Source of the DNA: Escherichia coli
Lineage (GTDB): Bacteria > Pseudomonadota > Gammaproteobacteria > Enterobacterales > Enterobacteriaceae
NCBI RefSeq assembly: GCF_003018255.1
Contig: NZ_CP027440.1
Direction: 5' to 3' (one strand)
Length of the DNA: 64,000 nucleotides
In this document: positions 8,237-57,715 of the stretch, in pieces
Position numbering within the stretch: the stretch's first letter is position 1
How the letters are laid out: every line of letters starts with the position of its first letter
Position numbers and translations under genes: made by a program
Notes under the pieces: model-generated
Seen by the model: the letters and a program-made list of their open reading frames with translations, nothing else
What the model was told of the DNA's origin: nothing
Databases searched by the model: none

Positions 8237-8284
8237 AAAACACTCCTTTTAAGACAGTTTTGACTGGCTGTGATAAAGGTTAAA

Positions 8285-8303
8285 CCTTCCAGCAAGGGGA
8301 AGG
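8285..8303 (-). promoter_or_regulatory. CueR operator inside MerR-type copA promoter (19-bp spacer)
   Basis: dyad ccttccagcaaggggaagg between ttgacc (-35) and taacct (-10) on the copA strand. Confidence 0.75.
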
Positions 8304-8498
8304 TCAAGAAATTAATAAACCAGGCGGGTAAAAGTCCGTAAAGATTAAAAAATCGGCTCGATTTGCATCAGGATTAGACATTTATCTCTTTGTTTTCCTG
8401 TAGTTAAGTTGCGGGTGCTAAGTTAAATCAGGATGCCTGAAAATTGGCACCGGGGTGAGGAATTACCTCCCGCATCTATAAAAAGGAGTTAACAAAAG

Positions 8499-9431
8499 AT
8501 GTTAGATGCAAACAAATTACAGCAGGCAGTGGATCAGGCTTACACCCAATTTCACTCACTTAACGGCGGACAAAATGCCGACTACATTCCCTTTCTGGCG
8601 AATGTACCTGGTCAACTGGCAGCAGTGGCTATTGTGACCTGCGATGGCAACATCTATCGCGCGGGTGATAGTGATTACCGCTTTGCGCTAGAATCCATCT
8701 CGAAAGTCTGTACGTTAGCCCTTGCGTTAGAAGATGTCGGCCCGCAGGCGGTACAGGACAAAGTTGGCGCTGACCCGACCGGATTGCCCTTTAACTCAGT
8801 TATCGCCTTAGAGTTGCATGGCGGCAAACCGCTGTCGCCACTGGTAAATGCTGGCGCTATTGCCACCACCAGCCTGATTAACGCTGAAAATGCCGAACAA
8901 CGCTGGCAGCGAATTTTACATATCCAACAACAACTGGCTGGTGAGCAGGTAGCGCTCTCTGATGAAGTCAACCAGTCGGAACAAACAACCAACTTCCATA
9001 ACCGGGCCATTGCCTGGCTGCTGTACTCCGCCGGATATCTCTATTGTGATGCAATGGAAGCCTGTGACGTGTACACCCGTCAGTGCTCCACGCTCATCAA
9101 TACTGTTGAACTGGCAACGCTTGGCGCGACGCTGGCGGCGGGTGGTGTGAATCCGCTGACGCATAAACGCGTTCTTCAGGCCGACAACGTGCCGTACATT
9201 CTGGCTGAAATGATGATGGAAGGGCTGTATGGTCGCTCCGGTGACTGGGCGTATCGCGTTGGTTTACCGGGCAAAAGCGGTGTAGGTGGCGGTATTCTGG
9301 CGGTCGTCCCTGGCGTGATGGGAATTGCCGCGTTCTCACCACCGCTGGACGAAGAAGGCAACAGTGTTCGCGGTCAAAAAATGGTGGCATCGGTCGCTAA
9401 GCAACTCGGCTATAACGTGTTTAAGGGCTGA
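8499..9431 (+). CDS. glsA: glutaminase 1
   Basis: 310 aa, serine-dependent glutaminase family, operon with ybaT. Confidence 0.9.
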   Translation: MLDANKLQQAVDQAYTQFHSLNGGQNADYIPFLANVPGQLAAVAIVTCDGNIYRAGDSDYRFALESISKVCTLALALEDVGPQAVQDKVGADPTGLPFNSVIALELHGGKPLSPLVNAGAIATTSLINAENAEQRWQRILHIQQQLAGEQVALSDEVNQSEQTTNFHNRAIAWLLYSAGYLYCDAMEACDVYTRQCSTLINTVELATLGATLAAGGVNPLTHKRVLQADNVPYILAEMMMEGLYGRSGDWAYRVGLPGKSGVGGGILAVVPGVMGIAAFSPPLDEEGNSVRGQKMVASVAKQLGYNVFKG

Positions 9432-44479: not shown

Positions 44480-44500
44480 GTGATGACCGGAATCAAAATT

Positions 44501-45730
44501 ATGAGCAGAGCACTTAACAAACTGAGTGACACACAGCTAAGGAAAATCAACGGCACACCCGCCCAAAAAACAGCCTTTCTTAATGACGGTGGAAACCTGA
44601 GCGTCAGGCATTCAACCAGCGGCCTTTTAACCTGGTATTTCACATACAGGGCCGGAACGGGAAGAGGGACACAACCTGAACGCGTTAAGCTGGGAAATTA
44701 TCCCGATCTGAGCCTGAAAGCAGCCAGGGAAAAAGCCGCACAGTGTCGCGCATGGCTGGCTGAGGGGAAAAATCCACGCTATGAACTGAATTACACCATG
44801 CAGGAAGCGTTAAAGCCTGCAACGGTTGGCGATGCGCTCACCTACTGGCTTGAGTCGTACGCAAAGGAAAAGCGCACAGATTACGAATCACTGAAAAGCC
44901 GGATCAATAAAAACATAATCATCAAAATTGGTGCTATGCCGCTGGATAAATGCGAGCTACGGCACTGGCTGGCCTGTTTTGATCAGGTGGCAAAGCGAAC
45001 ACCTGTTACTGCCGGATTCTTGCTACAGACATGCAAACAGGCGCTTAAATTCTGCCGTAGGCGGCGCTATGCAATCAGCAACGTTCTGGACGATCTGAAC
45101 GTGGCGGACGTTGGGAAAAAACCGGATATAAGCGAACGTGTCTTAAGCACCAAAGAACTGGGCGAGTTATTGCAGGCGCTGGATAAAAAAATATTTTCTC
45201 CTTACTACGTCGCGTTAATCCGCCTCCTGATTGTCTTCGGAGCCAGGACGGTAGAACTGAGGTTATCGGAGATCAGCGAGTGGGATTTTACCGAAATGCT
45301 ATGGACCGTTCCGAAGGAGCACAGCAAAACGAAGGTTGCAATATTCCGGCCCATACCGGAAGCGATCCTGCCGTTCGTCACGCGGCTGGTGGAGCAGAAC
45401 AGGCACACGGGCTTATTACTGGGGGAAGTGAAACAGGAGGCTAGCGTATCGCAGTACGGCAGATTAGCGCACAGGAGGCTAAAACACCTTCAATGGTCAT
45501 TGCATGACATCCGGCGCACCTTTACAACGATGCTGAATGATTTGGGCGTGGATCCTCACGTCGTGGAGCAGCTTACAGGTCATCAGATGCCAGGGATGCA
45601 ACGAGTCTATAACCACTCCCGTTATCTCGATGCGAAACGTGATGCGCTGGATATGTGGACGGAGCGGTTAGGGATACTGGCGGGAGCACATGAAAACGTA
45701 ACCACGCTACCAGTAACCAGAATAAAATAA
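44501..45730 (+). CDS. int: tyrosine integrase (P4-like)
   Basis: P4-type N-terminal arm-binding region and C-terminal catalytic residues (..HDIRRTF.., ..RVYNHSRY..); adjacent to attL; start taken at MSRALNKL (ORF opens at 44480). Confidence 0.9.
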   Translation: MSRALNKLSDTQLRKINGTPAQKTAFLNDGGNLSVRHSTSGLLTWYFTYRAGTGRGTQPERVKLGNYPDLSLKAAREKAAQCRAWLAEGKNPRYELNYTMQEALKPATVGDALTYWLESYAKEKRTDYESLKSRINKNIIIKIGAMPLDKCELRHWLACFDQVAKRTPVTAGFLLQTCKQALKFCRRRRYAISNVLDDLNVADVGKKPDISERVLSTKELGELLQALDKKIFSPYYVALIRLLIVFGARTVELRLSEISEWDFTEMLWTVPKEHSKTKVAIFRPIPEAILPFVTRLVEQNRHTGLLLGEVKQEASVSQYGRLAHRRLKHLQWSLHDIRRTFTTMLNDLGVDPHVVEQLTGHQMPGMQRVYNHSRYLDAKRDALDMWTERLGILAGAHENVTTLPVTRIK

Positions 45731-46094
45731 TTTTTTTCGTGTTTTTTCAGTATGCGCATACTGGATAAGTGCACAGATACAACGTGAAACAATGTGCAAC
45801 AACGTGACACAATCATGAACAAGAGGCCAAAAAGAATACAGATTTATAAGTTACTGATTTTTATTGCTCAACTGGTTTTTTATACATTAGCGAATTACGC
45901 GTTAAAGCGTGCGAAAAAAGGCATAAAACAAGATTTTATGCCTTTGTATTAACATGAATTTAAATGATTTTATCCTGATTATTCCTCTTTCTGTAAACCA
46001 TACGACATCAACATTTGCCATTCACCACACTAGCGGGAACAATACGACACAATAAGACACCTGATGACTCTTTAAGAAACGAAAGGGGGCAATA

Positions 46095-46283
46095 GTGTTA
46101 AGCACTGATCGGTTTATACGTGAAAAAGAATGCGAAAAGCTAACAGGCCTTAGCCGCTCATGCCGCTACCGCCTGGAAAAGGCCGGACAATTCCCATCAC
46201 GTCGTAAACTTGGCGGGCGTTCTGTTGGCTGGTCTTTATCTGAGGTTTTGGCCTGGAAGGATAGCTGCAAGGCAGTTCACTAA
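46095..46283 (+). CDS. alpA: AlpA-family transcriptional regulator / excisionase-like
   Basis: 62 aa, GTG start after SD aaggggg; ..KLTGLSRSCRYRLEKAGQFP..LGGRSVGWSLSEVLAW.. fits AlpA/MerR-type HTH. Confidence 0.7.
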   Translation: MLSTDRFIREKECEKLTGLSRSCRYRLEKAGQFPSRRKLGGRSVGWSLSEVLAWKDSCKAVH

Positions 46284-46526
46284 AAAGACTGGCGGCACAC
46301 AGTCGCCACACATCCACTAATACAGAGATATAACTATGAAGATTGAATATGCGCCCGAACGTGGGCGGGGATTCGTTCGCCCTGGTGAAACTGAAAAACA
46401 ACAAAATTGGGGTTTTTCAGGCATAAAAAAAGCGGCCCCGATATGGAGCCGCCTTTCTGAACAATTAACCTGCTGCGCCTTATGTGTATGTGATCCCAAA
46501 CATAAGCACGGGGATGATAGCCGCTA

Positions 46527-46724
46527 TCAGGCTGGTGGGCAATTCCTGTTTTGTCCGTATTGCGCCGCCATTTTCGCTCGTTCAGAGCGCGAATATTTTT
46601 TTAGAAACTCATCAAGGACAAAAGCGCATGGTGCGAATCTTTCTGATTCATGCTCGAGCGCCATATTTTCGTGCTCTCTGTTCGTTTTTTGCGATGGTGT
46701 ATCGCTTGATTCTTTGTTGGTCAT
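46527..46724 (-). CDS. hypothetical small protein downstream of Arc-like gene
   Basis: 65 aa hydrophilic ORF, same strand as Arc-like gene. Confidence 0.2.
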   Translation of the reverse strand: MTNKESSDTPSQKTNREHENMALEHESERFAPCAFVLDEFLKKYSRSERAKMAAQYGQNRNCPPA

Positions 46725-46781
46725 TGTGTGTACCTGTAAAGCAATGCGCCGTAGTACCTCACACCACGGCGCTGATAGTTT

Positions 46782-46973
46782 TTATCCTTTGGGGTCTATG
46801 CCGCGCCGCTTTAGTTCAGTGCGCCCCAACTCTTTAAGCCAGTTGGCTAGGCTTATGCCGTCGCTCTGTGCTTCTTTGTCGAATTGCTCTTTTAGCTCTG
46901 GAGAAATTCGCATTCTGAATTGTGGGGATTGCCCGTCCCCTTTAGGGCTTTTATCGCGTTTGATTGTTGACAA
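46782..46973 (-). CDS. Arc/MetJ-type ribbon-helix-helix protein (candidate repressor), antisense to neighbouring island genes
   Basis: ..SPQFRMRISPELKEQFDKEAQSDGISLANWLKELGRTEL.. matches Arc N-terminal strand plus helices; start codon uncertain (TTG with SD aggtgg). Confidence 0.4.
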   Translation of the reverse strand: MSTIKRDKSPKGDGQSPQFRMRISPELKEQFDKEAQSDGISLANWLKELGRTELKRRGIDPKG

Positions 46974-47107
46974 GTGGCCACCTATTAAATTAGCCTTTCT
47001 ATTGTTAGGTGGCCACCTTAACACAAGAGCACTTAAAAAAGCAAAGCCCCGCAAGTGCCATTACCACTCGCAGGGCTTCTAACCAACAACGTAAACGAGG
47101 AGCCGTT

Positions 47108-47308
47108 ATGGTTGCCGTAAATCATATACCACACCTTGTACACACACAAACTGCCTTTGTGTGGCGTTTTCTGGCCCTGAGTGCCGGAGAATCTCAAATC
47201 ATCCACGTAACCGCCTGGACGGAACGCGAAGCGCGTAACCGTTGCCCGTCCGGTTGTGTTGCTGTATTTGCCGCCCGTATTCGTCAGGGGGAAACCTATG
47301 CACAATAA
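47108..47308 (+). CDS. small protein resembling Icd-like cell-division inhibitors of P4-type satellites
   Basis: 66 aa from ATG with SD aggag; ..FVWRFLALSAGESQIIHVTAWTEREARNRCP.. (recalled family resemblance). Confidence 0.4.
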   Translation: MVAVNHIPHLVHTQTAFVWRFLALSAGESQIIHVTAWTEREARNRCPSGCVAVFAARIRQGETYAQ

Positions 47309-47528
47309 AACCACACCGGACGCAGCAGAAGAAGCAATGCAAATACTGATACGTGCGCTCGTTGATGTTACCCACATGGTGGAGATTATGGAGAGAAAAT
47401 CACAGTCGGAGCACGACAAAAGAAAACTTAAAACAATAAAAATAATTGCCAAAAACTCGCTGATAAAAGTTACAGACATCCTTAATGAGGACATTAAAAG
47501 AATAAGGGAGAAAATTTGTGATGCATAA
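47298..47528 (+). CDS. hypothetical protein (island accessory)
   Basis: 76 aa, AT-rich, SD ggggga, overlaps neighbours. Confidence 0.4.
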   Translation: MHNKTTPDAAEEAMQILIRALVDVTHMVEIMERKSQSEHDKRKLKTIKIIAKNSLIKVTDILNEDIKRIREKICDA

Positions 47529-47748
47529 AATCCCTTTTGAAGTATTAATCCACTCTGAAAACGCATTAATTAAAGCACGCGAAATGAATGCGTTGTTAAT
47601 TAAATTAATTGAAGTGCCGGAAGGTGGTGAGGAATCAGGTGTATTAATGTTTGCAGCCATTCAGACATTACTATCGCCTGTTATTGATGAACTGGATAAG
47701 GCAATGGCAATTCACGAAAATAATAACGCGCCCCACACCGGAGAATAA
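47518..47748 (+). CDS. hypothetical protein (island accessory)
   Basis: 76 aa, AT-rich, start overlaps previous stop. Confidence 0.4.
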   Translation: MMHKIPFEVLIHSENALIKAREMNALLIKLIEVPEGGEESGVLMFAAIQTLLSPVIDELDKAMAIHENNNAPHTGE

Positions 47749-47753
47749 AAATA

Positions 47754-48053
47754 ATGAAACTTAAATATTCTGGCTTAACTGCCAGTGGCAAAACTCGCAC
47801 TAAATTCATGCGCGGTGATATTTACCGCGACCAGTACGGCGGCACGGTAATGATTAAGGGCGTGGAGGAACGGCGCGTAACTTACCGCCGTGAAGGTTAC
47901 GAATATGATTGCGTGATGCCCGTTTATCAGTTCGACCGTGATTTTTCTCTGGTGCAGGCAGCGCAACGCAGCAAGCCCACCAGCAGGGAGAAAGCACGCG
48001 CCAATATTCAGGAAATAAAAAAGATGCTTAACGTATTCAGGGGTAAAAAATGA
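47754..48053 (+). CDS. hypothetical protein (island accessory)
   Basis: 99 aa basic protein, stop overlaps primase start. Confidence 0.4.
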   Translation: MKLKYSGLTASGKTRTKFMRGDIYRDQYGGTVMIKGVEERRVTYRREGYEYDCVMPVYQFDRDFSLVQAAQRSKPTSREKARANIQEIKKMLNVFRGKK

Positions 48054-49804
48054 AACTGGCACCGAACGTAAAACAGCAGTCACGCGGCATAAAACACAAA
48101 GAAACAGAAGTCATTATTTTTGCGGGTAGTGATGCCTGGTCACACGCAAAACAATGGCAGGAACATGACGCGCGTATGGCCGGAGATAATGAGCCTCCTG
48201 TGTGGCTTGGGGAGCAGCAGTTATCAGAACTGGATAAGCTGCAAATTGTGCCGGAAGGCAGAAAATCCGTGCGCATATTCAGGGCCGGATATCTTGCACC
48301 AGTAATGATAAAGGCGATTGGTCAAAAGCTGGCGGCGGCTGGTGTACAGGATGCAAATTTTTATCCTGAGGGTATGCACGGCAAGGAGGTGCAGAACTGG
48401 CGCGAATACCTGGCCCGTGAACGCCAGAATCTTTCTGATGGTCTGGTCATTGAGCTTCCGGTAAAGCAAAAGGCGCAACTTTCGCAGATGGCGGACAGTG
48501 AGCGCGCGCAGCTGCTTGCCGATCGCTTTGATGGCGTTTGCGTACATCCTGAAAGTGAAATTGTTCACGTATGGCGCGGCGGGGTATGGTGTCCGGTCAG
48601 CACAATGGAACTTAGCCGCGAAATGGTGGCGATCTATTCAGAGCACAGGGCCACTTTCAGCAAGCGCGTAATCAATAACGCCGTGGAAGCGTTAAAAGTT
48701 ATTGCCGAACCAATGGGCGAGCCGTCCGGCGATTTGCTGCCGTTCGCCAATGGTGCGCTTGACCTGAAAACGGGGGAATTTTCCCCGCACACGCCGGAGA
48801 ACTGGATCACCACGCACAACGGCATTGAGTACACGCCACCAGCACCAGGGGAGAATATCCGCGACAACGCGCCAAACTTTCATAAATGGCTTGAGCACGC
48901 AGCCGGAAAAGACCCGCGCAAGATGATGCGTATATGTGCCGCGCTGTACATGATTATGGCGAACCGGTACGACTGGCAGATGTTTATTGAGGCCACCGGA
49001 GACGGCGGGAGCGGTAAAAGTACATTCACACACATAGCCAGCCTTCTGGCAGGGAAACAGAACACGGTAAGCGCTGAAATGACATCGCTTGATGATGCTG
49101 GTGGACGTGCGCAGGTTGTCGGGAGTCGTCTTATCGTCCTGGCTGACCAGCCGAAATATACAGGCGAAGGAACGGGCATCAAGAAAATCACGGGCGGCGA
49201 CCCCGTGGAAATTAACCCGAAATATGAGAAGCGTTTTACGGCGGTAATCAGGGCGGTGGTGCTGGCTACCAACAATAACCCGATGATATTCACCGAACGG
49301 GCCGGAGGTGTGTCACGTCGTCGCGTAATTTTCCGTTTCGACAATATCGTCAGTGAGGCCGAAAAAGACAGGGAGCTACCGGAAAAGATTGCGGCTGAAA
49401 TCCCTGTCATTATCCGCCGATTGCTGGCGAACTTTACCGACCCTGAGAAGGCACGGGCTTTACTACTGGAACAGCGTGACGGTGATGAAGCTCTGGCAAT
49501 AAAGCAACAGACGGATCCGGTTATTGAGTTTTGCCAGTTCCTGAATTTTCTGGAGGAAGCACGCGGCCTGATGATGGGCGGCGGTGGCGATTCAGTGAAG
49601 TACACGACCAGGAACAGCCTTTACCGCGTCTATCTGGCGTTTATGGCATACGCAGGCAGGAGCAAACCGCTAAACGTGGCTGAGTTCAGCAAGGCCATGA
49701 AGCCAGCGGCGAAAGTTTACGGGCATGAATATATTACGCGAAAAGTTAAGGGAGTAACGCAGACCAACGCAATTACAACAGACGATTGCGACGCGTTTTT
49801 ATAA
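48050..49804 (+). CDS. primase-helicase replication protein (P4 alpha-like C-terminal NTPase)
   Basis: 584 aa, Walker A GDGGSGKST, Walker B-like LIVLAD. Confidence 0.85.
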   Translation: MKLAPNVKQQSRGIKHKETEVIIFAGSDAWSHAKQWQEHDARMAGDNEPPVWLGEQQLSELDKLQIVPEGRKSVRIFRAGYLAPVMIKAIGQKLAAAGVQDANFYPEGMHGKEVQNWREYLARERQNLSDGLVIELPVKQKAQLSQMADSERAQLLADRFDGVCVHPESEIVHVWRGGVWCPVSTMELSREMVAIYSEHRATFSKRVINNAVEALKVIAEPMGEPSGDLLPFANGALDLKTGEFSPHTPENWITTHNGIEYTPPAPGENIRDNAPNFHKWLEHAAGKDPRKMMRICAALYMIMANRYDWQMFIEATGDGGSGKSTFTHIASLLAGKQNTVSAEMTSLDDAGGRAQVVGSRLIVLADQPKYTGEGTGIKKITGGDPVEINPKYEKRFTAVIRAVVLATNNNPMIFTERAGGVSRRRVIFRFDNIVSEAEKDRELPEKIAAEIPVIIRRLLANFTDPEKARALLLEQRDGDEALAIKQQTDPVIEFCQFLNFLEEARGLMMGGGGDSVKYTTRNSLYRVYLAFMAYAGRSKPLNVAEFSKAMKPAAKVYGHEYITRKVKGVTQTNAITTDDCDAFL

Positions 49805-49809
49805 TTTTT

Positions 49810-50050
49810 TGTAAAAGCCCTCTACCCCATCTACCTGAATGAAGTAAACGCATATTATTCAACATGATAAGTGGGTAGAGGGCTAGGTAGAAGGCTAATA
49901 AAAGCTCTCTACCCCTTCTACCTGATTTTATCAGTTTCAGGTAGCAGGGTAGACGGCAGGTAGAGGAGCCCAAAAAGCTATCTACCCGCTGAAAGCCGCG
50001 CCATTACTGACATGATGAGCATTCGGGTAGATGGGTAGAGGGGGGGGAGG
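49810..50050. repeat. iteron cluster, putative island origin of replication
   Basis: at least 10 copies of GGTAGA/TCTACC-containing units in both orientations, e.g. cctctaccccatctacctga, ctctctaccccttctacctga, gggtagatgggtagaggg. Confidence 0.6.
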
Positions 50051-50082
50051 CACAACTAAAAACTTTTTAAACGAGGGGGGGG
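50040..50082 (+). repeat. two G8 homopolymer tracts just upstream of ORF 50090
   Basis: G8 at 50040-50047 and 50075-50082, the second 7 nt before the ATG. Confidence 0.4.
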
Positions 50083-50089
50083 AAAATAA

Positions 50090-50404
50090 ATGCGCATACA
50101 TCAAAATCACTTAACAAATATGCCAGCCGAAAACATGAATCAGGGGCGACAAATGACCAAAATTCGCAGAGACAGAACACAGGCAAAATATAAAGCGTTA
50201 GACATGACAGAGCTTTCCTTAAAGGTGGCAATCAAAGCGATAGACCACCACACACGGGCAGGATACGCGAAGGAACATCCCGACCTGATAAGCGCATTCA
50301 TGACCACGGCGGCGGCAAACTTTGCCACGTTGACAGAACGTGAGATTGCCGAAGCGGAACAGGTAACAACCATCAACGTTAAAACCGGAGAGGTGGAATC
50401 ATGA
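50090..50404 (+). CDS. hypothetical protein (island accessory)
   Basis: 104 aa ORF, stop overlaps SSB-like start. Confidence 0.35.
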   Translation: MRIHQNHLTNMPAENMNQGRQMTKIRRDRTQAKYKALDMTELSLKVAIKAIDHHTRAGYAKEHPDLISAFMTTAAANFATLTEREIAEAEQVTTINVKTGEVES

Positions 50405-50811
50405 CAGCACAGATAGCCGCTTACGGGCGGCTGGTGGACGACCCGCAGGTAAAACAGACCAGCAAGGGCACACCGATGACGCTGGTTCGTATGGCGGTAT
50501 CGCTGCCATGCAGCCAGGCACATGACGGACAGGCGACGTTATGGTTATCGGTTATCGCATTTGGCAAACAGGCCGATTTCCTGGCTAAACATCAAAAAGG
50601 CGATGTTGCCAGCGTATCCGGCACGATGCAGGTAAGCCAGTGGACCGGACAGAACGGGGAAACGCGGCGGGGGTATCAGGTTATTGCAGACAGCGTAATC
50701 AGTGCCCGCGCGGCACGTCCAGGCGGGAACAGACGCAAAACCACAGGCACACAGGGTAATCAGCCACCAGCGGGAGGCGATGACCCTTACGGTGACGGTA
50801 TTCCGTTCTGA
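50401..50811 (+). CDS. SSB-like single-stranded DNA-binding protein
   Basis: 136 aa, OB-fold-like N-terminus, Gly-rich linker, acidic tail ..DDPYGDGIPF like SSB DDDIPF. Confidence 0.55.
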   Translation: MTAQIAAYGRLVDDPQVKQTSKGTPMTLVRMAVSLPCSQAHDGQATLWLSVIAFGKQADFLAKHQKGDVASVSGTMQVSQWTGQNGETRRGYQVIADSVISARAARPGGNRRKTTGTQGNQPPAGGDDPYGDGIPF

Positions 50812-50821
50812 GGGGGTGACG

Positions 50822-51070
50822 ATGGTACATGACCGCATAGCGGAGGAACTCGAGGCAAAAGGCTTTTACCGGAGGGCGTCGGCGCGATGGGGTGAAGTCA
50901 TGCAACTGGTGGAGACAGACAAGGAACGGCATCAGGTTACGATGCGACGGCTGGAATGTTCCAGGAAGGCACAGAGGCCACCGGAGCCGCCAACGGAGAA
51001 CTACGCAGACCTGAGAAATGCAGTAAATCGCACTTACGCAGACATGGGGCTGAGCAAATTAGCAGAGTAG
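50822..51070 (+). CDS. PerC-family-like transcriptional regulator
   Basis: 82 aa from internal ATG with SD gaggggg; ..LEAKGFYRRASARWGEVM..TDKERHQVTMRRLEC.. (recalled PerC-like pattern). Confidence 0.4.
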   Translation: MVHDRIAEELEAKGFYRRASARWGEVMQLVETDKERHQVTMRRLECSRKAQRPPEPPTENYADLRNAVNRTYADMGLSKLAE

Positions 51071-51141
51071 GAATATCAGAACCACACCACGCAGCCGGAG
51101 CAATCCGGCTTTTTGTTATTTTTTGTAAATTATTTGTTCGT

Positions 51142-51158
51142 GGTTGTTCCACGTTGTT
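51142..51158 (+). promoter_or_regulatory. copy of TTGTT(C/T)CACGTTGT motif upstream of capsid operon
   Basis: gttgttccacgttgttcac; similar motifs near 44423, 45782 (inverted) and 58385. Confidence 0.35.
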
Positions 51159-51374
51159 CACTGAGCGGATCGGCATATTTTACCCGAACTGAATCATGAT
51201 TATTCTCGCCCGTGGTGCCAGGACGCTGGGGCCACTTTCCCGCCTGTTAATGTGCTCGCCAATATTCATTACCAGGCGGGAAAACGATCGGTGCGATTGC
51301 TGATTTCCTTATGAAAAACGGTTGAGTGTTTGCCGCGTCCTGGAGTTCCTTACTTAACCCCAGGACTTTTTTTT

Positions 51375-52532
51375 ATGCCGAGAATAATCGAATTACGCCA
51401 GCAGAAAACCGCCATTAAAAATCAGATGCGCGACATGCTGGAGAACGCTGAAAAAGAAAACCGCAGTCTTAACGATGCTGAGGGCGCAAAATTTGACGAA
51501 TTACGCGCTAAAGCTGAATCCCTCGATAAAGACATTTCCCGCCTTGAAGCCATTGCAGACGAAGAGCGCAGCAAGCCAGGTAAAAGCAGCCAGACCACTG
51601 ACCCCGCAGAACTACGCAGCTACATTCTGACAGGTGAAACCCGCGCATTAAGTACAGGCGTTCCCGCTGATGGTGGTTATACCGTTATCCCCGAACTGAA
51701 CACCGAAATCATGCGAATGCTGGCGGATGAATCCACCATGCGCCGCATCTGTACCGTGAAAAAAATCAGCAGCAACGAGTTTAAGCAGCTTGTTTCCGCT
51801 GGCGGTGCGACCGTTAACCACGGTGAAGAGGGTAAGGCACGCGAACAGACCAGCACCCCGCAGATTAACGAGGTGAGCATTAAGCTGTATCCGGTCTATG
51901 CGTACCCGCGCACCACACAGGAAATCGTGGATTTTTCCGATGTGGACATCCTTTCATGGCTGACGGGTGAGATTGGCGACACCTTCACGGAAACCGAAGA
52001 AAGCGATCTGGTTGTGGGCGACGGTGACAAAAAAGCAAAAGGTTTTTTATCCGTACCCCGTGCAGAGAAGAACGACAAAGAGCGTGATTTTGGTACGTTG
52101 CAGGTAATTAAACCTTCCGAATCTCTGGCGTGGACATCTGCGGACCCGCTGATCGACCTGAAATTTGCATTACGTAAAAAATACCGCAAAAACGCGGTCT
52201 GGGTGGTTAACTCCACGACGGCGGCAAAACTCCAGAAGGTGAAGAACGCGAACGGTGATTACATCTGGCGTGACCGTTTACAGGCGGGTGATCCTGATAC
52301 GTTGCTGGGCCTTCCGGTCGAATATCTGGAGTTTATGCCTGATAACGTTATTGCCCTGGGTGACTTCAAACGCGGTTACTACATTGTTGATCACGAAACA
52401 GGTGTTCGCACCAGACCGGACAACCTCACAGAGCCGGGCTTCATCAAAATTTTCACGCAGAAATATTTAGGCGGTGGCGTGGTGGATTCGAACGCGATCA
52501 AGATTCTGGAACTGCCACAGGACGACGATTAA
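51375..52532 (+). CDS. major capsid protein, HK97 fold, coiled-coil N-terminal delta domain
   Basis: coiled-coil N-terminus then HK97-like capsid core; start taken at MPRIIELRQQK. Confidence 0.85.
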   Translation: MPRIIELRQQKTAIKNQMRDMLENAEKENRSLNDAEGAKFDELRAKAESLDKDISRLEAIADEERSKPGKSSQTTDPAELRSYILTGETRALSTGVPADGGYTVIPELNTEIMRMLADESTMRRICTVKKISSNEFKQLVSAGGATVNHGEEGKAREQTSTPQINEVSIKLYPVYAYPRTTQEIVDFSDVDILSWLTGEIGDTFTETEESDLVVGDGDKKAKGFLSVPRAEKNDKERDFGTLQVIKPSESLAWTSADPLIDLKFALRKKYRKNAVWVVNSTTAAKLQKVKNANGDYIWRDRLQAGDPDTLLGLPVEYLEFMPDNVIALGDFKRGYYIVDHETGVRTRPDNLTEPGFIKIFTQKYLGGGVVDSNAIKILELPQDDD

Positions 52533-52571
52533 CAGCATACAGAAGGGGCTTAAAAGCCCCTTTAGTGTTTT

Positions 52572-53144
52572 ATGGGTGAAAAAATTATGAAGAGTATGGA
52601 AATCCGGTCATCGGAAATCACCACCAGCGGAGCCGGTACGCTGACGGGCTACGTTGTTCGCTGGGATAAGCTTTCAGAACTGTTATGGGGTGAGTTTTAC
52701 GAAAAATTCCAGCGGGGGGCGTTTACTGAATGGCTTGCGGCGGGTAATGACGTTCGCGGCCTGTATGAGCATGACCACAGCATGTTACTGGGGCGCACCC
52801 GTTCCGGCACGCTGAAACTGGAAGAGGACGAAACAGGGTTACGCTTTGAACTGACCCCACCGGATACCAGTACAGGGCGCGACGTTATCGAACTGGTTAA
52901 GCGTGGGGACATCTCGGGGATGAGCTTTGGCTTTCGCTCCCGTAAGGATGTATGGGATACCACAACAGATCCATGCGTGCGCACCGTGCTGGTGGCGGAA
53001 CTGTACGAAATTACCGTTACATCGGTACCGGCTTACCCCGATTCCGGCGTGGAGCTGGCCCGCCGTTCCCTGTATGAGCAGCACCCCGAAAAAATGCCGC
53101 GTGCGGATAATCGCCGCTGGTGGGTGGATTTAGCGGGGGTGTGA
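52572..53144 (+). CDS. prohead protease (HK97 gp4 family)
   Basis: 190 aa, ..LYEHDHSMLLGRT.. and ..ISGMSFGF.. Confidence 0.8.
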   Translation: MGEKIMKSMEIRSSEITTSGAGTLTGYVVRWDKLSELLWGEFYEKFQRGAFTEWLAAGNDVRGLYEHDHSMLLGRTRSGTLKLEEDETGLRFELTPPDTSTGRDVIELVKRGDISGMSFGFRSRKDVWDTTTDPCVRTVLVAELYEITVTSVPAYPDSGVELARRSLYEQHPEKMPRADNRRWWVDLAGV

Positions 53145-53145
53145 T

Positions 53146-54357
53146 ATGTGGCCTTTCAGAAGAAAAAAAGAGCAGCGCAGCATGACGCTTGATAAGTTTA
53201 TGGCGCTGGCTGGCACATCGAACACGGGGGCGGGTGAGTACGTATCATCGGGGACAGCGGAATCACTGCCCGCCGTCATGAACGCCGTGACGGTCATCTC
53301 TGAGGCGGTGGCTACCATGCCGTGTTACCTGTACCTGGTACGCAATGAGAAGGGGAAGGAGGCCCGCGAGTGGCTTGATTCTCATCCGGTCGATCACATC
53401 CTCAACGAGCGCCCGAACGCGTGGCAGACTCCCTACCAGTTTAAGCGAATGATGATCCGCCACTGCCTGTTAAACGGTAATGCTTATGCGGTGATTCAGT
53501 GGGGGCGTGATGGTTTTCCGGTGGCTTTACATCCTTACCCGCCGCAGTCGGTGAACGTGGAGCAGACAGGTGATCATAACTGGCGCTACTGCATCACTGA
53601 CGCCTACACCGGAAACACCCGCAACTATTTACCGTGGGAGGTTCTCCACCTTCGTTACTCCACGGATGACGGTTTTATGGGGCGCTCACCTGTAACCATC
53701 TGCCGCGAATCGCTGGGGCTTGGGCTGGCCCAACAACGCCACGGCGCGAGCGTGATGCGTGATGGCATGATGGCGGCAGGGGTTATCACGTCAGGCGAAT
53801 GGCTGGACGGCGTGAAGGGCAAACAGGCATTAGCCGCACTGGAACGCTACAAAGGGGCCAGAAACGCCGGAAAAACGCCCATCCTTGAAGGGGGGATGAG
53901 CTATCAGCAGCTGGGCATGAGTAATCAGGATGCCGAATGGCTGGCCTCCCGTCGCTTCACCATTGAAGACATCGCCCGAATGTTCAACGTCTCGCCGATT
54001 TTTTTGCAGGAATACAGCAACAGCACCTACAGCAACTTCAGCGAGGCAAGCCGCGCATTTCTCACCATGACGATGCGCCCGTGGCTGGCGAACTTTGAGC
54101 AGCAGATAAAAAACGCCCTGCTGGTGGCCTCGCCTGTACCTGGTATCCGGTATCAGGTGGAGTTTGACAGCGCGGACCTGTTACGGGCCACACCTGGCGA
54201 ACGCTTTGCCACCTATGAACGCGGCATCAAATCCGGCGTTATGTGCCCGAACGAAGCCCGCGAACGTGAAGGGCTGTCCCCGCGTGATGGTGGTGATGAG
54301 TTCAGCCAGGCATGGAAACAGGAAGTAAAAATCAGCGAGGGAGAAAAACCGGAATGA
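53146..54357 (+). CDS. portal protein (HK97 family)
   Basis: 403 aa, follows protease, precedes head-completion genes. Confidence 0.8.
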   Translation: MWPFRRKKEQRSMTLDKFMALAGTSNTGAGEYVSSGTAESLPAVMNAVTVISEAVATMPCYLYLVRNEKGKEAREWLDSHPVDHILNERPNAWQTPYQFKRMMIRHCLLNGNAYAVIQWGRDGFPVALHPYPPQSVNVEQTGDHNWRYCITDAYTGNTRNYLPWEVLHLRYSTDDGFMGRSPVTICRESLGLGLAQQRHGASVMRDGMMAAGVITSGEWLDGVKGKQALAALERYKGARNAGKTPILEGGMSYQQLGMSNQDAEWLASRRFTIEDIARMFNVSPIFLQEYSNSTYSNFSEASRAFLTMTMRPWLANFEQQIKNALLVASPVPGIRYQVEFDSADLLRATPGERFATYERGIKSGVMCPNEAREREGLSPRDGGDEFSQAWKQEVKISEGEKPE

Positions 54358-54692
54358 ACATAGGGCGACTGCGTGACAGGATAACGATTCAGACCCTGAA
54401 ACAGACCAGGGATATAACCGGCGAAATACTCGAAACGTGGGAGGACGGTCACACACTCTGGGCAAGCGTGAACATGGTCAGCAGCAAGGAGGCCATTTCA
54501 TCGGGCGCAGAGCTGGCGATTGGTACCGTAAGGATCTGGATACGGTACCGGAAGGACATCAACGCCACCTGCCGGATAAAGGTCAGTACGGGGCCGCTGG
54601 CGGGGCGTGTACTGAATATCATCGGGCAGCCGCTGCCGGATGCCGCCAGGACACGCCTTGAAATTCTTTGTCGTGAGGGCGCGGAAAAATGA
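54354..54692 (+). CDS. head-tail adaptor / head closure protein
   Basis: start MNIGRLRDRITIQ overlaps portal stop; ..IWIRYR.DI.. pattern. Confidence 0.65.
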   Translation: MNIGRLRDRITIQTLKQTRDITGEILETWEDGHTLWASVNMVSSKEAISSGAELAIGTVRIWIRYRKDINATCRIKVSTGPLAGRVLNIIGQPLPDAARTRLEILCREGAEK

Positions 54693-54985
54693 CAGAAGAA
54701 CTTATCACCCTGGAAGAAGTGAAACTCCATTGCCGCATCGATGGCGACGATGAAGACCAGTTAATCAGCGGATACATTGCCGCATCGCTTGAGGCGTGCC
54801 AGATACACATAGGCAGGCGCTTTGATGACGGGCTGGAGTTCACGCCAGCCATAAAGATTGGCTGCATGATGTTTATCGCTCACCTGTATGAAAATCGCCA
54901 GATTGTCGCGGATAACGCAAAAACACGCGTACCCATGACGATAGGCGCACTCTGGACGGCTTACCGTGATGTGGGGGTGTACTGA
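54689..54985 (+). CDS. gp6-like head-tail connector protein
   Basis: 98 aa; ..ITLEEVKLHCRIDGDDEDQLISGYIAAS.. Confidence 0.65.
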   Translation: MTEELITLEEVKLHCRIDGDDEDQLISGYIAASLEACQIHIGRRFDDGLEFTPAIKIGCMMFIAHLYENRQIVADNAKTRVPMTIGALWTAYRDVGVY

Positions 54986-55425
54986 TGCCGTGGCAACCAT
55001 TAAGACGATGCACAGAACCAGGCTGTAACAGGCGCGTTAAATCCGGCAAGTGTGAGGAGCACAGGCGGGCGGCATGGCGTGCAGAGGATGCCAGACGAGG
55101 ACACCGCCGCGCGCGTGGATATTCCAGACAGTGGGACAAATACCGCGCCATGTATCTGAGTAAAAACCCGTTATGCGTGCGATGCCTTGAGAAGGGGATA
55201 TATACGCCCGCCGTGGTGGTGGATCACATTATCCCGATTAATGGCGGTGATGATGTTCTCTTCTGGCCCGAATGGAACCATCAACCATTGTGCCAGGCGT
55301 GTCATAACCAGAAAACGAAATGGCTTGATCCGGCAACAAAAAGCAAGCGTGCCGCAGGTGGATTTCGTGAAGAGGAAGAACGGGCTGCTAACCGCAATAA
55401 CTGGATGTATGACGCTGATGAATGA
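54985..55425 (+). CDS. HNH endonuclease (packaging-associated)
   Basis: Cys-rich zinc motifs and ..VVDHIIPINGG..NHQPLCQACHNQKT.. HNH core, next to terminase. Confidence 0.85.
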   Translation: MPWQPLRRCTEPGCNRRVKSGKCEEHRRAAWRAEDARRGHRRARGYSRQWDKYRAMYLSKNPLCVRCLEKGIYTPAVVVDHIIPINGGDDVLFWPEWNHQPLCQACHNQKTKWLDPATKSKRAAGGFREEEERAANRNNWMYDADE

Positions 55426-55591
55426 GCGGGAACAAAACCGCCTTATCCGTGGACTTATAAGGCAGCGTGACGCATGGAAGACACAGGAAACAGGGCATAA
55501 AGATAAAGCGTCAGGACGCGCAGAACGCATCACAGCGAAGCGATTAACCGACCGTGACCGCGAGGTTATGGAATGTTTCCGCAATCGCTGA
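55409..55591 (+). CDS. possible small ORF overlapping HNH 3' end
   Basis: 60 aa basic peptide (MTLMNEREQNRLIRGL...), no recognisable domain. Confidence 0.2.
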   Translation: MTLMNEREQNRLIRGLIRQRDAWKTQETGHKDKASGRAERITAKRLTDRDREVMECFRNR

Positions 55592-55713
55592 TGAGGCTGT
55601 ATGACGGGGTGGGGGGCGTTTTCAGGACAAACCCGACCCCGCCGGGCACCGAACGCCTCCTCAAATTTTTATGCACGGGAATTTTTTGAAAAATAATCTG
55701 GCGAAAAATAAGC

Positions 55714-56070
55714 ATGGCAAGACCACCGAAAGCCCCCGCCTACCTGGATGATATCGCCGTGAAGCAGTGGCGGGAAAAATCTAGGCAGCTTGCGGAACGG
55801 GGAGACCTGACCCCCGCCGACTGGAGCAATCTGGAACTGTATTGTGTCAACTACTCCATTTACCGGAAAGCCGTTGCAGACCTTGCGGCGCGCGGGTTCA
55901 GCATTGTTAACAGTCAGGGCGGCGAGAGCAGAAACCCCGCATTAAGCGCAAAATCCGACGCTGAAAGAGTGATGATAAAAATGGCCTCTTTGCTCGGTTT
56001 TGACCCGATAAGCCGCCGTAAAAATCCACCGGAAACAGAAGAAGAGGACGAGCTTGACCGCCTGGAATAA
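55714..56070 (+). CDS. terminase small subunit (P27-like)
   Basis: 118 aa; ..DLTPADWSNLELYCVNYSIY..LLGFDPISRRK.. fits P27-family TerS. Confidence 0.7.
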   Translation: MARPPKAPAYLDDIAVKQWREKSRQLAERGDLTPADWSNLELYCVNYSIYRKAVADLAARGFSIVNSQGGESRNPALSAKSDAERVMIKMASLLGFDPISRRKNPPETEEEDELDRLE

Positions 56071-57715
56071 GTACGCAGAAGACGTAAAAACGGGCAAAAT
56101 TCCGGCCTGTAAACGGCTGAAACAGGCCGTTAAACGGTACTTTTCGGACCTTGAAAGCCCCCTTTACACGTTCGATCGTGAGGTTGTGGAGCGGTTTATT
56201 GCCTTTTCCAGGGTGTGCCCGCACGTAAAAGGGCCGATGCGTGGCAGACCCATTGAGCTGGAGCCGTGGCAGCAGTTCGCCTTTGCGTGCATCCTCGGCT
56301 TTAAGGTTAAGGCCACCGGACGGCGCAAATACACGAGCGCCTTTATCGAAGTGCCGCGCAAAAATGCGAAATCCACGACCGCCGCGATTCTGGCTAACTG
56401 GTTTCTGATTATGGAGAACGGGCAGCAGGATATTTACACCGCAGCGGTGAGCCGTGACCAGGCGCGGATCGTTTTTGATGATGCGCGTCAGATGTGCCTT
56501 TTATCCCGACCGTTACGCAGGCGGGTGAATATTCAGGCCCACAAGGTGATGCACCCGAAAAGCAACAGCCTGTTAAAGCCGCTGGCAGCAAAAGCGGCAA
56601 CCATCGAGGGAACAAACCCCAGCCTTTCCATCGTGGACGAATACCACCTACACCCCGATAACGGCGTTTATTCCGCGCTTGAGCTGGGGATGGGCGCACG
56701 TCCCGAAGGGCTGTTATTTGCCATTACCACATCGGGCAGTAACGTCGTTTCAACCTGTAAACAGCACTATGATTATTGCTGCCAGATCCTGGACGGCGAA
56801 GAGGTCAACGATTCAATTTTTGTGCTGATTTACGAGCTGGACGACGAAAACGAGGTTGATGATCCGGCGATGTGGATAAAGGCTAACCCTAACATCGATG
56901 TTTCCGTGGATCGTGAAAAACTGGCCTCAACCATCCAGAAAGCGCGGGGTATTCCGTCGCAATGGGTGGAGATGATGACAAAGCGATTTAATATCTGGTG
57001 CCAGGGGGCTACCCCGTGGATGGGTAACGGCGCATGGGCTGAGTGTGCCGGAACGTTCACGGAGGAAGATTTACACGGGCAGGAGTGTTACGCGGGGCTG
57101 GACTTATCATCAACCAGCGATATTTCCAGCGTGTGCTATGCCTTTCCGGTCGGTAAAAATATCATGCTGGTTTCCCGTCATTATCTGCCGGAGTTCCAGC
57201 TACAGAACCCCGCCAATAAAAACCGCGCTGTCTATCGCCAGTGGGCTAAAGCGGGCTGGATACGCACAACGCCAGGTGACTGCATTGATTACGACCGGAT
57301 CAGAGATGACATCATGCAGGATGCGGAGAAATTTAATATCAGGCTGGTGGGCTTTGATACGTGGAACGCCACGCATCTCAGGACGCAATTACAGGGGGCT
57401 GGTTTTGAGGTGGAGCCGTTCCCGCAAACCTACCTCAGATTCAGTCCGGCGGCGAAATCGTTCGAAGTTTTTGTTAACCGCAGGGTGATTGTGCATCGTG
57501 GCGATCCGGTGTTGTCCTGGTCGATGAGTAACGTCGTGATGCAGAGTGACGCGAACGCCAATATCAAGCCGAACAAGAAAAAATCACCGAACAAGATAGA
57601 CCCGAGCGTAGCGGCGCTGATGGCGTTTGGTACATTCCAGGCAGAGCATGAGGATTTTGCTTTTGATATAAGCGACAGCCACCGCCAGAAACTGGAAGAA
57701 TTTAGCGGGGTGTAA
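56054..57715 (+). CDS. terminase large subunit
   Basis: 553 aa, ATPase N-terminus and nuclease C-terminus, overlaps terS. Confidence 0.9.
   Translation: MTAWNKYAEDVKTGKIPACKRLKQAVKRYFSDLESPLYTFDREVVERFIAFSRVCPHVKGPMRGRPIELEPWQQFAFACILGFKVKATGRRKYTSAFIEVPRKNAKSTTAAILANWFLIMENGQQDIYTAAVSRDQARIVFDDARQMCLLSRPLRRRVNIQAHKVMHPKSNSLLKPLAAKAATIEGTNPSLSIVDEYHLHPDNGVYSALELGMGARPEGLLFAITTSGSNVVSTCKQHYDYCCQILDGEEVNDSIFVLIYELDDENEVDDPAMWIKANPNIDVSVDREKLASTIQKARGIPSQWVEMMTKRFNIWCQGATPWMGNGAWAECAGTFTEEDLHGQECYAGLDLSSTSDISSVCYAFPVGKNIMLVSRHYLPEFQLQNPANKNRAVYRQWAKAGWIRTTPGDCIDYDRIRDDIMQDAEKFNIRLVGFDTWNATHLRTQLQGAGFEVEPFPQTYLRFSPAAKSFEVFVNRRVIVHRGDPVLSWSMSNVVMQSDANANIKPNKKKSPNKIDPSVAALMAFGTFQAEHEDFAFDISDSHRQKLEEFSGV

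Follow-up and report, generated by a model that had tools for sequence, protein, structure and literature searches.

A predicted Arc-type repressor with paired operators and a putative antisense RNA at the head of the replication operon of an Escherichia coli phage-inducible chromosomal island

The stretch of DNA described here, called the window, comprises 64,000 nucleotides of Escherichia coli contig NZ_CP027440.1 (assembly GCF_003018255.1), and at about 44480-57715 it contains a capsid-forming phage-inducible chromosomal island (cf-PICI; PICI for such islands in general). Two small open reading frames (ORFs) run on the minus strand between alpA and an operon that extends from an icd-like gene to a primase gene. 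The first is predicted to encode a ribbon-helix-helix (RHH) repressor of the Arc type and, with the operators and the antisense RNA predicted beside it, appears to form a switch that heads the replication operon in many Gram-negative satellites, using a known logic of immunity in a new arrangement. The genes concerned are the following:

46782-46973, minus strand: predicted Arc-type RHH repressor gene, 63 aa, with a TTG start at 46973-46971 and a TAA stop at 46784-46782
46527-46724, minus strand: ORF2, 65 aa, matching phrog_21027 (E=2.3e-12), with the invariant core HESERFAPCAF.L..FLK.Y; small and probably helical
46336-47082, plus strand: ORF of 248 aa, apparently a shadow of the two minus-strand genes, with a homologue annotated by RefSeq
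47108-47308, plus strand: icd-like gene, 66 aa, matching NF033153 (E=5.5e-18); first gene of the operon and predicted target of the antisense RNA

A sequence-only reading of the region had already pointed to two ORFs opposed to the other island genes, and the ORF listing agrees, with 46782-47054 (minus strand, 90 aa counted from the first TTG) and 46527-46724 (minus strand, 65 aa) among neighbouring island genes that are all on the plus strand. Homologues of the first ORF in Providencia, Erwinia, Xenorhabdus, Morganella, Proteus, Dickeya, Pantoea, Enterobacter and other genera are 63-64 aa long and share the N-terminus MSTIKRDKSPKGDGQSPQF, so its true start is the TTG at 46973, giving a protein of 63 rather than 90 aa. 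This codon is preceded by AGGTGG, and its coordinate is the upper limit that the sequence-only reading had set.

Both ORFs are covered by the plus-strand ORF at 46336-47082, and the choice of strand was examined across 59 loci, drawn from 55 species-representative Enterobacterales genomes, three E. coli relatives and the window itself. An unbroken RHH ORF of 55-72 aa is present in 58 of these, while the equivalent antisense frame is interrupted by stops within the RHH span in 36. The ratio of nonsynonymous to synonymous differences (pN/pS) is 0.32 in the RHH frame vs 0.43 in the antisense frame, and in 97% of 350 pairs the RHH frame has the lower value. With the long ORFs of the window as training set, a codon model scores the minus frame at +6.8 over the RHH gene and +8.4 over ORF2, vs -10.7 and -5.6 for the plus frame. 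The sequence-only reading had preferred the minus strand from the composition of the plus-strand product, and these three lines of evidence concur with it. The idea that the 248-aa ORF is the true gene and the minus-strand ORFs arose by chance draws on RefSeq, where the annotation pipeline PGAP names its homologue a hypothetical protein in strains EDL933 and Sakai and a truncated pseudo 'Icd-like' gene in other strains, on the plus frame being open over ORF2 in all seven E. coli-type loci, and on the codon-model score of the 5' third of the ORF. Set against the stops, the pN/pS values and the codon model, and given that family searches return nothing for the 248-aa ORF and that the two small genes are bracketed by predicted minus-strand start sites and terminators, we find it scarcely credible. 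In PICIs with a broken plus frame, it is the two minus-strand genes that RefSeq calls. RHH ORF, ORF2 and plus-strand ORF have their third codon positions in common, an arrangement that yields long shadow ORFs, and we take the 248-aa ORF to be one of these and no gene. ORF2 is probably real and minus-strand coding is favoured for it, with less certainty than for the RHH gene. One result leaves that assignment unsupported: substitution counts in ORF2 display codon periodicity but do not separate the strands, because the third codon positions coincide. The comparison corrects a recurrent RefSeq error, by which the shadow ORF enters the annotation as a protein or as a pseudo 'Icd-like' gene. Such annotations are found at loci L001 (4053-4796), L002 (1553-2296), L061 (2337-2930) and L062 (2415-2894), where the RHH gene and the small ORF are omitted. 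The 5' third of the shadow ORF (46336-46526, plus strand) scores +9.9 in the codon model as plus-strand coding, and holds a conserved inverted repeat, GAACG...CGTTC, common only to elements with the same alpA type.

The Arc/MetJ pattern that the sequence-only reading had seen in the first ORF is confirmed by profile and structure comparisons. The protein matches PHROG 228 'Arc-like repressor' (E=1.9e-6), and a profile of 27 homologues finds P22 Arc in the PDB at E=0.0086 over almost its full length; the Pfam Arc family itself gives a non-significant match (E=0.45). The AlphaFold (AF2) model, with a predicted local distance difference test score (pLDDT) of 80.8, consists of an extended segment followed by helices at 25-37 and 42-56, which is the beta-alpha-alpha unit of about 45 residues that, with a significant profile match, characterizes the Arc/MetJ RHH superfamily. 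Structure prediction, where the lack of such a fold would have refuted the sequence-only reading, returns the RHH fold: the best Foldseek matches in the PDB are Arc entries 1myl and 1par (probability 1.00, target template-modelling score 0.87, root-mean-square deviation 1.1 A over 42 columns), all Foldseek E-values lying above 0.001 and the top PDB matches all being RHH proteins. Weaker matches include RHH antitoxins and CopG. By profile and by fold, P22 Arc is the closest solved relative, at about 25-28% identity. In the Arc-operator structure (1par) the base-contacting residues are Gln9, Asn11 and Arg13. The N-terminal arm and the PQF-x-x-R beta-strand of the window protein align with this region, Q18, R20 and R22 falling on Gln9, Asn11 and Arg13 in the profile alignment, and the arginine equivalent to R22 is invariant. 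The homologue in EDL933 is 96% identical. From these features the protein is predicted to bind DNA.

RefSeq/PGAP calls homologues of this protein either 'toxin-antitoxin system HicB family antitoxin' or 'YlcI/YnfO family', and the RHH segment of Pfam HicB does match (i-E=0.0016, aligning residues 44-74 of the 90-aa ORF with positions 18-48 of the 51 in the profile). An identity as HicB antitoxin was considered and rejected: at 63 aa the protein corresponds to the RHH part of HicB only and has no N-terminal HicA-neutralising domain.

In most of the 59 loci about 120-140 bp separate the RHH gene from a divergent operon (about 135 bp in the window), and some 50 of them share a single upstream architecture. 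Read in the sense of the RHH strand, the order is the complement of the divergent start codon, a small stem-loop with a CUCC loop, GGTTAG, a long GC-rich hairpin usually followed by a U-run, TGnTAAGGT, a 12-bp operator O1, an AT-rich spacer of 22 nt, and a 12-bp operator O2 containing an AGGT Shine-Dalgarno sequence next to the start codon. Operators and promoters are predicted in the window as follows:

47007-47018: operator O1, the perfect palindrome AGGTGGCCACCT, overlapping both the -10 of the predicted RHH promoter and its start site
46972-46983: operator O2, AGGTGGCCACTT on the minus strand, which takes in the Shine-Dalgarno sequence of the RHH gene and two bases, the first ones, of its start codon, and falls in the spacer of the predicted P_rep
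47015-47023, minus strand: TG-n-TAAGGT, predicted to serve the RHH operon as an extended -10, with transcription starting near 47008
46967-46996, plus strand: P_rep, the predicted promoter of the icd-like-to-primase operon, with -35 TTGACA at 46967-46972, an 18-nt spacer holding O2, and -10 TAGCCT at 46991-46996

The two operators of the window are 12 bp each and 35 bp apart from centre to centre, a distance of 33-35 bp across loci. Their outer AGGT...ACCT is widely retained. The cores vary by locus, O1 and O2 always shifting together, as direct or inverted copies, and the shifts go along with changes in the beta-strand of the RHH protein:

SPQF[RK]MRI beta-strand: operator core GTGRCCAC
[SA]PTFQIRI beta-strand: operator core GTACGTAC
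APAFQIRM beta-strand: operator core GTGTGTAC
SPHFKMRI beta-strand: operator core GGGGCCCC
SP[MLI]F[NS]VRL beta-strand: operator core GTATAGAC or GTATGGAC
[AS]PPFHMRI beta-strand: operator core GTGTACAC

In the window both operators carry GTGGCCAC, vs GTACGTAC in the PTFQIRI class. The variable positions of the beta-strand are those that align with Gln9 and Asn11 of Arc, and their co-variation with the cores of both sites is a strong comparative signal for a putative dimer whose paired beta-strands would read operator bases. The pairing of GTACGTAC with PTFQIRI is kept beside three unrelated divergent genes (icd-like, SymE-like, and one for a 176-aa protein); since this class spans all three, the operator sites follow the RHH protein and not the neighbouring gene. 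The co-variation would thus be the signature of a repressor and its operators, and it offers about six natural specificity pairs for the study of RHH-DNA recognition.

At three loci a gene of the YlcI/YnfO type replaces the Arc-type RHH gene (L004, 3085-3300; L062, 3077-3292; L063, 2850-2990), and the repeats at the operator position are altered in all three. L004 and L062 have four TGTAAG/CTTACA half-sites there and retain the antisense RNA as well as ATGTCAA, a stub of the former start, while L063 has three GTGTTnAACAC palindromes and is without the stub. In a further E. coli locus (L003, 2501-3745) a YlcI-type gene and ORF2 are followed by an inserted segment and then by the 3' part of an Arc-type RHH gene, 96% identical to that of the window, which suggests cassette exchange at the site.

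For the RHH operon, TGnTAA upstream of O1 is nearly invariant among 33 unique sequences, and 47015-47023 is read as its putative extended -10 promoter. The case for P_rep begins with the RHH coding sequence, where the start codon and codon 2 are the complement of its TTGACA. Ser2 is encoded by TCA in all 49 RHH genes compared, while Thr3 uses four codons, an invariant arginine six and another invariant serine two. Such synonymous constraint argues for a function at the nucleotide level, namely TTGACA on the opposite strand, and a nearly invariant TA...T follows 18 nt further on the plus strand. The start site of P_rep is predicted near 47003, with O1 just beyond. P_rep is thus assigned provisionally. 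Should both promoters exist, they would overlap while facing each other, and binding of the RHH protein would shut both.

The second component of the region is a short RNA predicted on the minus strand, across the start of the icd-like gene:

47114-47035 (approximate), minus strand: predicted cis-antisense RNA of about 80 nt with two stem-loops, fully complementary to the icd-like ribosome-binding site and start codon
47121-47149, minus strand: predicted promoter of the antisense RNA, within the first icd-like codons, with -35 TTGTGT at 47149-47144 and -10 TATGAT at 47126-47121

The first stem-loop (SL1, about 47113-47081) has a loop containing UCCUC, an anti-Shine-Dalgarno sequence, and the second (SL2, 47079-47043) forms with its U-run a predicted terminator of the RNA. 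Of 50 unique loci, 41 have a -10-like hexamer that ends exactly 10 nt ahead of the start-codon complement, and in another 8 the distance is 4 nt; TATGAT, TAGAAT, TACTAT, TAGACT and similar hexamers are found there, although the N-terminal coding sequences are unrelated. In all 51 loci folded, the minus-sense RNA gives a better fold than its complement (mean -26.6 vs -17.8 kcal/mol; Wilcoxon p=5e-10) and contains 2-7 G-U pairs, vs 0-3 and mostly 0-1 in the complement. For the window the values are -35.2 kcal/mol (z=-5.3) in the minus sense vs -21.6 kcal/mol (z=-2.0) for the complement. An alignment of 38 sequences gave no predicted pairs in RNAalifold, because indels shift the hairpins out of register, and this run was replaced by folding of each sequence and by a homogeneous alignment of 18 sequences. 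In the latter, 100% of the 234 cells of the long hairpin are paired and 6 pairs show compensatory changes; none of 500 shuffles reaches the observed values, and slid controls collapse. Comparison of the loci thus points to a conserved RNA structure that is specific to one strand, preceded by a conserved -10. From its position this RNA would act on translation of the icd-like gene, and as the genes of the icd-like operon overlap by a few bases, a block at the first start site would be expected to lower expression further downstream. The antisense-RNA segment occurs in 853 of 5426 complete E. coli genomes, and the whole switch, with the operators of this RHH protein, in 112.

Rfam holds no family at the antisense RNA, whether the 301-nt region is searched at E up to 10 or 6 kb at E up to 1, and scans of the window and six loci at gathering and permissive thresholds likewise returned nothing there. 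The immunity RNAs C4, IsrK and CI, and SymR, have no Rfam match in the window, and SymR has none at the locus with a SymE-like target either. A match to the rnk leader was dismissed as a chance hit caused by the terminator.

Taken together, these features make it fairly probable in our view that the icd-like-to-primase operon is under a two-layer lock, consisting of an autoregulated Arc-type repressor and a countertranscript. The minus-strand unit would begin at the promoter near 47015-47023 and run through the RHH gene, a hairpin and ORF2 as far as a terminator at 46452-46424. The RHH protein would bind O1 and O2, with O1 covering the -10 and start site of its own promoter, and O2 covering its ribosome-binding site and start codon while lying between the -35 and -10 of P_rep. 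Given these positions, occupancy would limit RHH synthesis, a form of autoregulation, and would silence the replication operon in the integrated island. The antisense RNA would start a few bases inside the icd-like gene, end at the conserved terminator hairpin and pair with the ribosome-binding site, and this pairing would probably lower expression through to the primase. ORF2 would ride as cargo on the repressor transcript. The alpA gene converges on the RHH operon, and one may speculate that read-through from it could interfere with RHH expression. That the RHH protein might be the master repressor of the island had been raised in the sequence-only reading; strong comparative evidence supports this, in the form of the position, divergent from the replication operon as in a PICI master repressor, together with co-varying operators that lie over predicted promoters. 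Its action on the shared region and the replication operon we infer from where the operators are placed, and there may be a link to AlpA-driven induction.

Several points weigh against such a lock. The RHH gene and its operators are physically linked, so the co-variation represents some six independent changes and not 59. The window's P_rep -10, TAGCCT, matches at only 3 of 6 positions and a consensus scan did not flag the promoter, and what drives the replication operon could instead be alpA read-through or a promoter that depends on AlpA. Loci of the Citrobacter/Enterobacter group have a weak U-run after SL2. The same RHH protein, operators and RNA are also found outside PICIs, beside genes unrelated to replication, and the RHH protein may thus act as a local regulator of a generic kind. 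Expression of alpA is turned on by helper phages, PICI induction needs AlpA, and over-expression of AlpA alone induces EcCICFT073, with no repressor invoked (PMC6092414).

There is a different reading, in which the RHH protein is a local autoregulator of its own operon and the leader of a cargo or defence slot, and the replication operon is under AlpA and perhaps the antisense RNA. It would account for the overlap of O1 and O2 with the RHH gene's own promoter and start codon, for the sufficiency of AlpA in EcCICFT073 and the weak -10 of P_rep in the window, and for the gene right after RHH in other genera, often a defence candidate on the same strand. The RHH gene is nevertheless retained without cargo in Dickeya, where convergent genes come next, and in Yersinia, where alpA does; the divergent gene and its antisense RNA, not the cargo, are what it is constantly paired with; and the TTGACA preserved through Ser2, with TA...T 18 nt away, points to a promoter on the opposite strand that has O2 in its spacer. 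For these reasons a purely local role seems to us rather unlikely.

The lock on the replication operon, if accepted, invites a wider proposal: the module would be the missing quiescence (immunity) system of many Gram-negative PICIs, overridden by AlpA once a helper has induced it, and the same portable cassette would anchor small defence islets. We put this forward tentatively, as possible rather than probable. The cassette is regarded as a portable regulatory unit because it also occurs outside PICIs, and a PICI role may not be its sole one. In Pantoea allii (L015, 5331-6793) the RHH gene, operators and antisense RNA lie in a three-gene islet between metF and ppc, together with a SLATT gene. 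In Citrobacter (L039, 4064-6973) the cassette is beside tRNA-Sec (selC), with a SymE-like first gene, then Hcp/TssD and STM2901-family genes and a MisL-type autotransporter. The Pasteurella 'phage' Pmp8 (L064, 4313-5183 and 7939-8004; OR544139), 15.3 kb and PICI-like, has an RHH homologue of 58 aa that is divergent from, and 130 bp away from, an Icd-like-domain gene heading a primase operon; a match to the int-alpA RNA of Rfam is present too.

The arrangement can be compared with several known systems. The immI region of phage P22 encodes the RHH repressors Arc and Mnt and the sar antisense RNA. The likeness would lie in a small autoregulated RHH repressor combined with an antisense RNA in an immunity-type region. 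Arc, however, binds one 21-bp operator as a tetramer, whereas two 12-bp near-palindromes 35 bp apart are found here, the host element is a satellite and not a phage, and the RNA targets an icd-like gene instead of ant. With immI of P1/P7 (C4 RNA-icd-ant) and with CI of P4 the window shares an Icd-like first gene and an RNA predicted to block its ribosome-binding site and so keep the genes after it silent; C4 and CI are processed, trans-acting RNAs from the same strand, unlike the RNA predicted here, a cis-encoded countertranscript with its own promoter. SymR is a small RNA antisense to the 5' end of symE, with a promoter just inside the target coding region. An antisense RNA of about 80 nt with a promoter inside its target would be common to both cases, and one branch of the RHH family has a SymE-like divergent gene (NF010128, E=4e-15), but the target in the window is Icd-like and heads a replication operon, and an RHH protein and operators are part of the module.

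In plasmid pMV158 replication is controlled by CopG, an RHH protein, and by the countertranscript RNAII, copG being co-transcribed with repB. A small RHH protein and a countertranscript at the translation start of a replication operon follow the same logic, CopG is among the fold matches, and the icd-like operon ends in a primase with SSB beyond, so that the pair could be thought to exert plasmid-style copy control over the excised, replicating island instead of keeping it quiescent. The RHH gene of the window is divergent and belongs to an integrated satellite, it has no detectable sequence relation to copG beyond the fold, and the same module flanks non-replication genes in chromosomal islets. 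Copy control therefore appears improbable to us, with the reservation that its molecular mechanism would be that of the lock preferred here, only the biological role being different, and that sequence cannot separate the two.

Among satellites, the repressor Stl of SaPIs and Rpr of Gram-positive PICIs are likewise divergent from the replication module and beside integration genes (PMC6092414). Stl proteins are larger, of the helix-turn-helix type, and lose their activity through proteins of the helper phage. The 63-aa RHH protein shows no evident domain for sensing a helper, so derepression would have to work otherwise. In other E. coli PICIs the same slot is occupied by YlcI/YnfO, which together with HicB is also a naming family for the RHH homologues. 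In Gram-negative PICIs it has been called unclear whether a global repressor exists (PMC6092414), and a description of the 'dynamic zone' from alpA to replication lists Bro-N proteins and C4/IsrK-type immunity RNAs and makes no mention of an RHH protein (PMC10111431). Our literature search produced no paper linking PICIs with an RHH protein, and nothing relevant for the Sakai locus tags or for icd-like antisense RNAs. As these islands spread virulence and anti-phage genes, it matters that the repressor question becomes testable. A conserved and largely mis-annotated Arc-type repressor with its operators, and an unrecorded antisense RNA, provide concrete targets, and the tractable prototype EcCIEDL933, with an RHH protein 96% identical, offers a route to how satellites stay silent and how the silence is broken.

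Downstream of the RHH gene, the minus-strand unit has two further structural features:

46746-46772, minus strand: GC-rich hairpin with a weak U tail, in the gap between the RHH stop and the ORF2 start; possible attenuator or stabiliser
46424-46452, minus strand: intrinsic terminator of the RHH-ORF2 unit, a 9-bp GC stem followed by U7, invariant in six aligned E. coli-type sequences

The hairpin is kept upstream of ORF2 in all seven E. coli-type loci, with either type of RHH protein. ORF2 itself belongs to a small, E. coli-centred family, with 10 clusters in a database of 5.8 billion proteins and 9 representatives in one of 1.84 billion, these searches giving one further match that is spurious and repetitive; it has no match in the phage collection and none in PADLOC. 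Its homologues keep the start and the invariant core and differ at the C-terminus, and the AlphaFold model shows low-confidence helices only (pLDDT 66). The EDL933 version is much more diverged than the RHH protein (45% in the tblastn match vs 96%). In other E. coli PICIs ORF2 follows a protein of the YlcI/YnfO type and not the Arc-type RHH. In most genera there is no ORF2 downstream of the RHH gene at all: in Dickeya convergent genes follow, in Yersinia alpA directly, and elsewhere the slot holds, on the same strand, PDC-S25 SIR2-like, PDC-M01A/B PtuA-like pair, Mrr-like nuclease, PDC-S33 RelA/SpoT-like, sce7726/cll, HalA-like, HNH or SLATT proteins, many of them defence candidates. Because the occupants differ between genera, the position after RHH is a variable cargo slot of which ORF2 is one occupant. 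The RHH gene thus appears to mark a cargo hotspot whose downstream slot gathers defence genes. Cargo slots with defence candidates were seen in loci L038, L053, L050, L055, L057, L047, L022 and L015, at about 6200-8800 in each.

The distribution of ORF2 also bears on the suggestion of the sequence-only reading that the two genes are a toxin-antitoxin module. In its type II form the RHH protein would neutralise a toxin of 65 aa and repress the operon, and the order of a small RHH gene and a small ORF is typical of such modules, PGAP does use the name 'toxin-antitoxin system HicB family antitoxin' for RHH homologues, and RHH antitoxins are among the weaker fold matches. Yet searches of Pfam, NCBIfam and PADLOC return no toxin family for ORF2, which is confined to a handful of E. 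coli clusters, no HicA toxin gene is adjacent and on that side most loci show no neighbour that is conserved, and the HicB match is limited to the RHH segment. Most RHH loci lack ORF2, so that a conserved, co-inherited pair is not seen, and where ORF2 is present it is paired with unrelated RHH types (Arc-type and YlcI/YnfO). The RHH protein stops 6-7 residues past helix 2 and for this reason has no toxin-binding tail. The module interpretation is accordingly abandoned as highly improbable, and ORF2 is best regarded as a lineage-restricted passenger in the variable cargo slot, co-transcribed with RHH and not its toxin partner.

Beyond the ORF2 stop, about 100 nt of the minus strand (46424-46526) are better conserved among E. 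coli-type elements than the C-terminus of ORF2, and a promoter-like site lies at the end of ORF2 (46542-46514, minus strand; TTGCCC, 17 nt, TATCAT). A second small RNA could arise from this 3' untranslated region and end at the operon terminator.

The remaining genes named above are taken from the ORF listing:

44480-45730, plus strand: integrase
46095-46283, plus strand: alpA
47754-48053, plus strand: DUF4222 gene
48050-49804, plus strand: primase, at the end of the icd-like operon

The operon leads from the icd-like gene, by way of small ORFs that overlap one another, to the primase, with every gene on the plus strand, and to its right are genes for SSB, major head, protease, portal, head-closure, HNH and large terminase proteins. 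The island, which spans about 44480-57715, is a cf-PICI, since it combines int, alpA and primase with capsid, portal, protease and terminase genes and is 87.7% identical to the EDL933 element; the absence of tail and lysis genes, which also defines the class, was checked non-exhaustively. The EDL933 element is the EcCIEDL933 of the literature, the prototype capsid-forming PICI. In the gap between int and alpA (45881-45962, plus strand) there is a terminator-like hairpin with a sub-threshold Rfam match to BSnc120 (23.8 bits vs a gathering threshold of 114), which is probably simply the int terminator.

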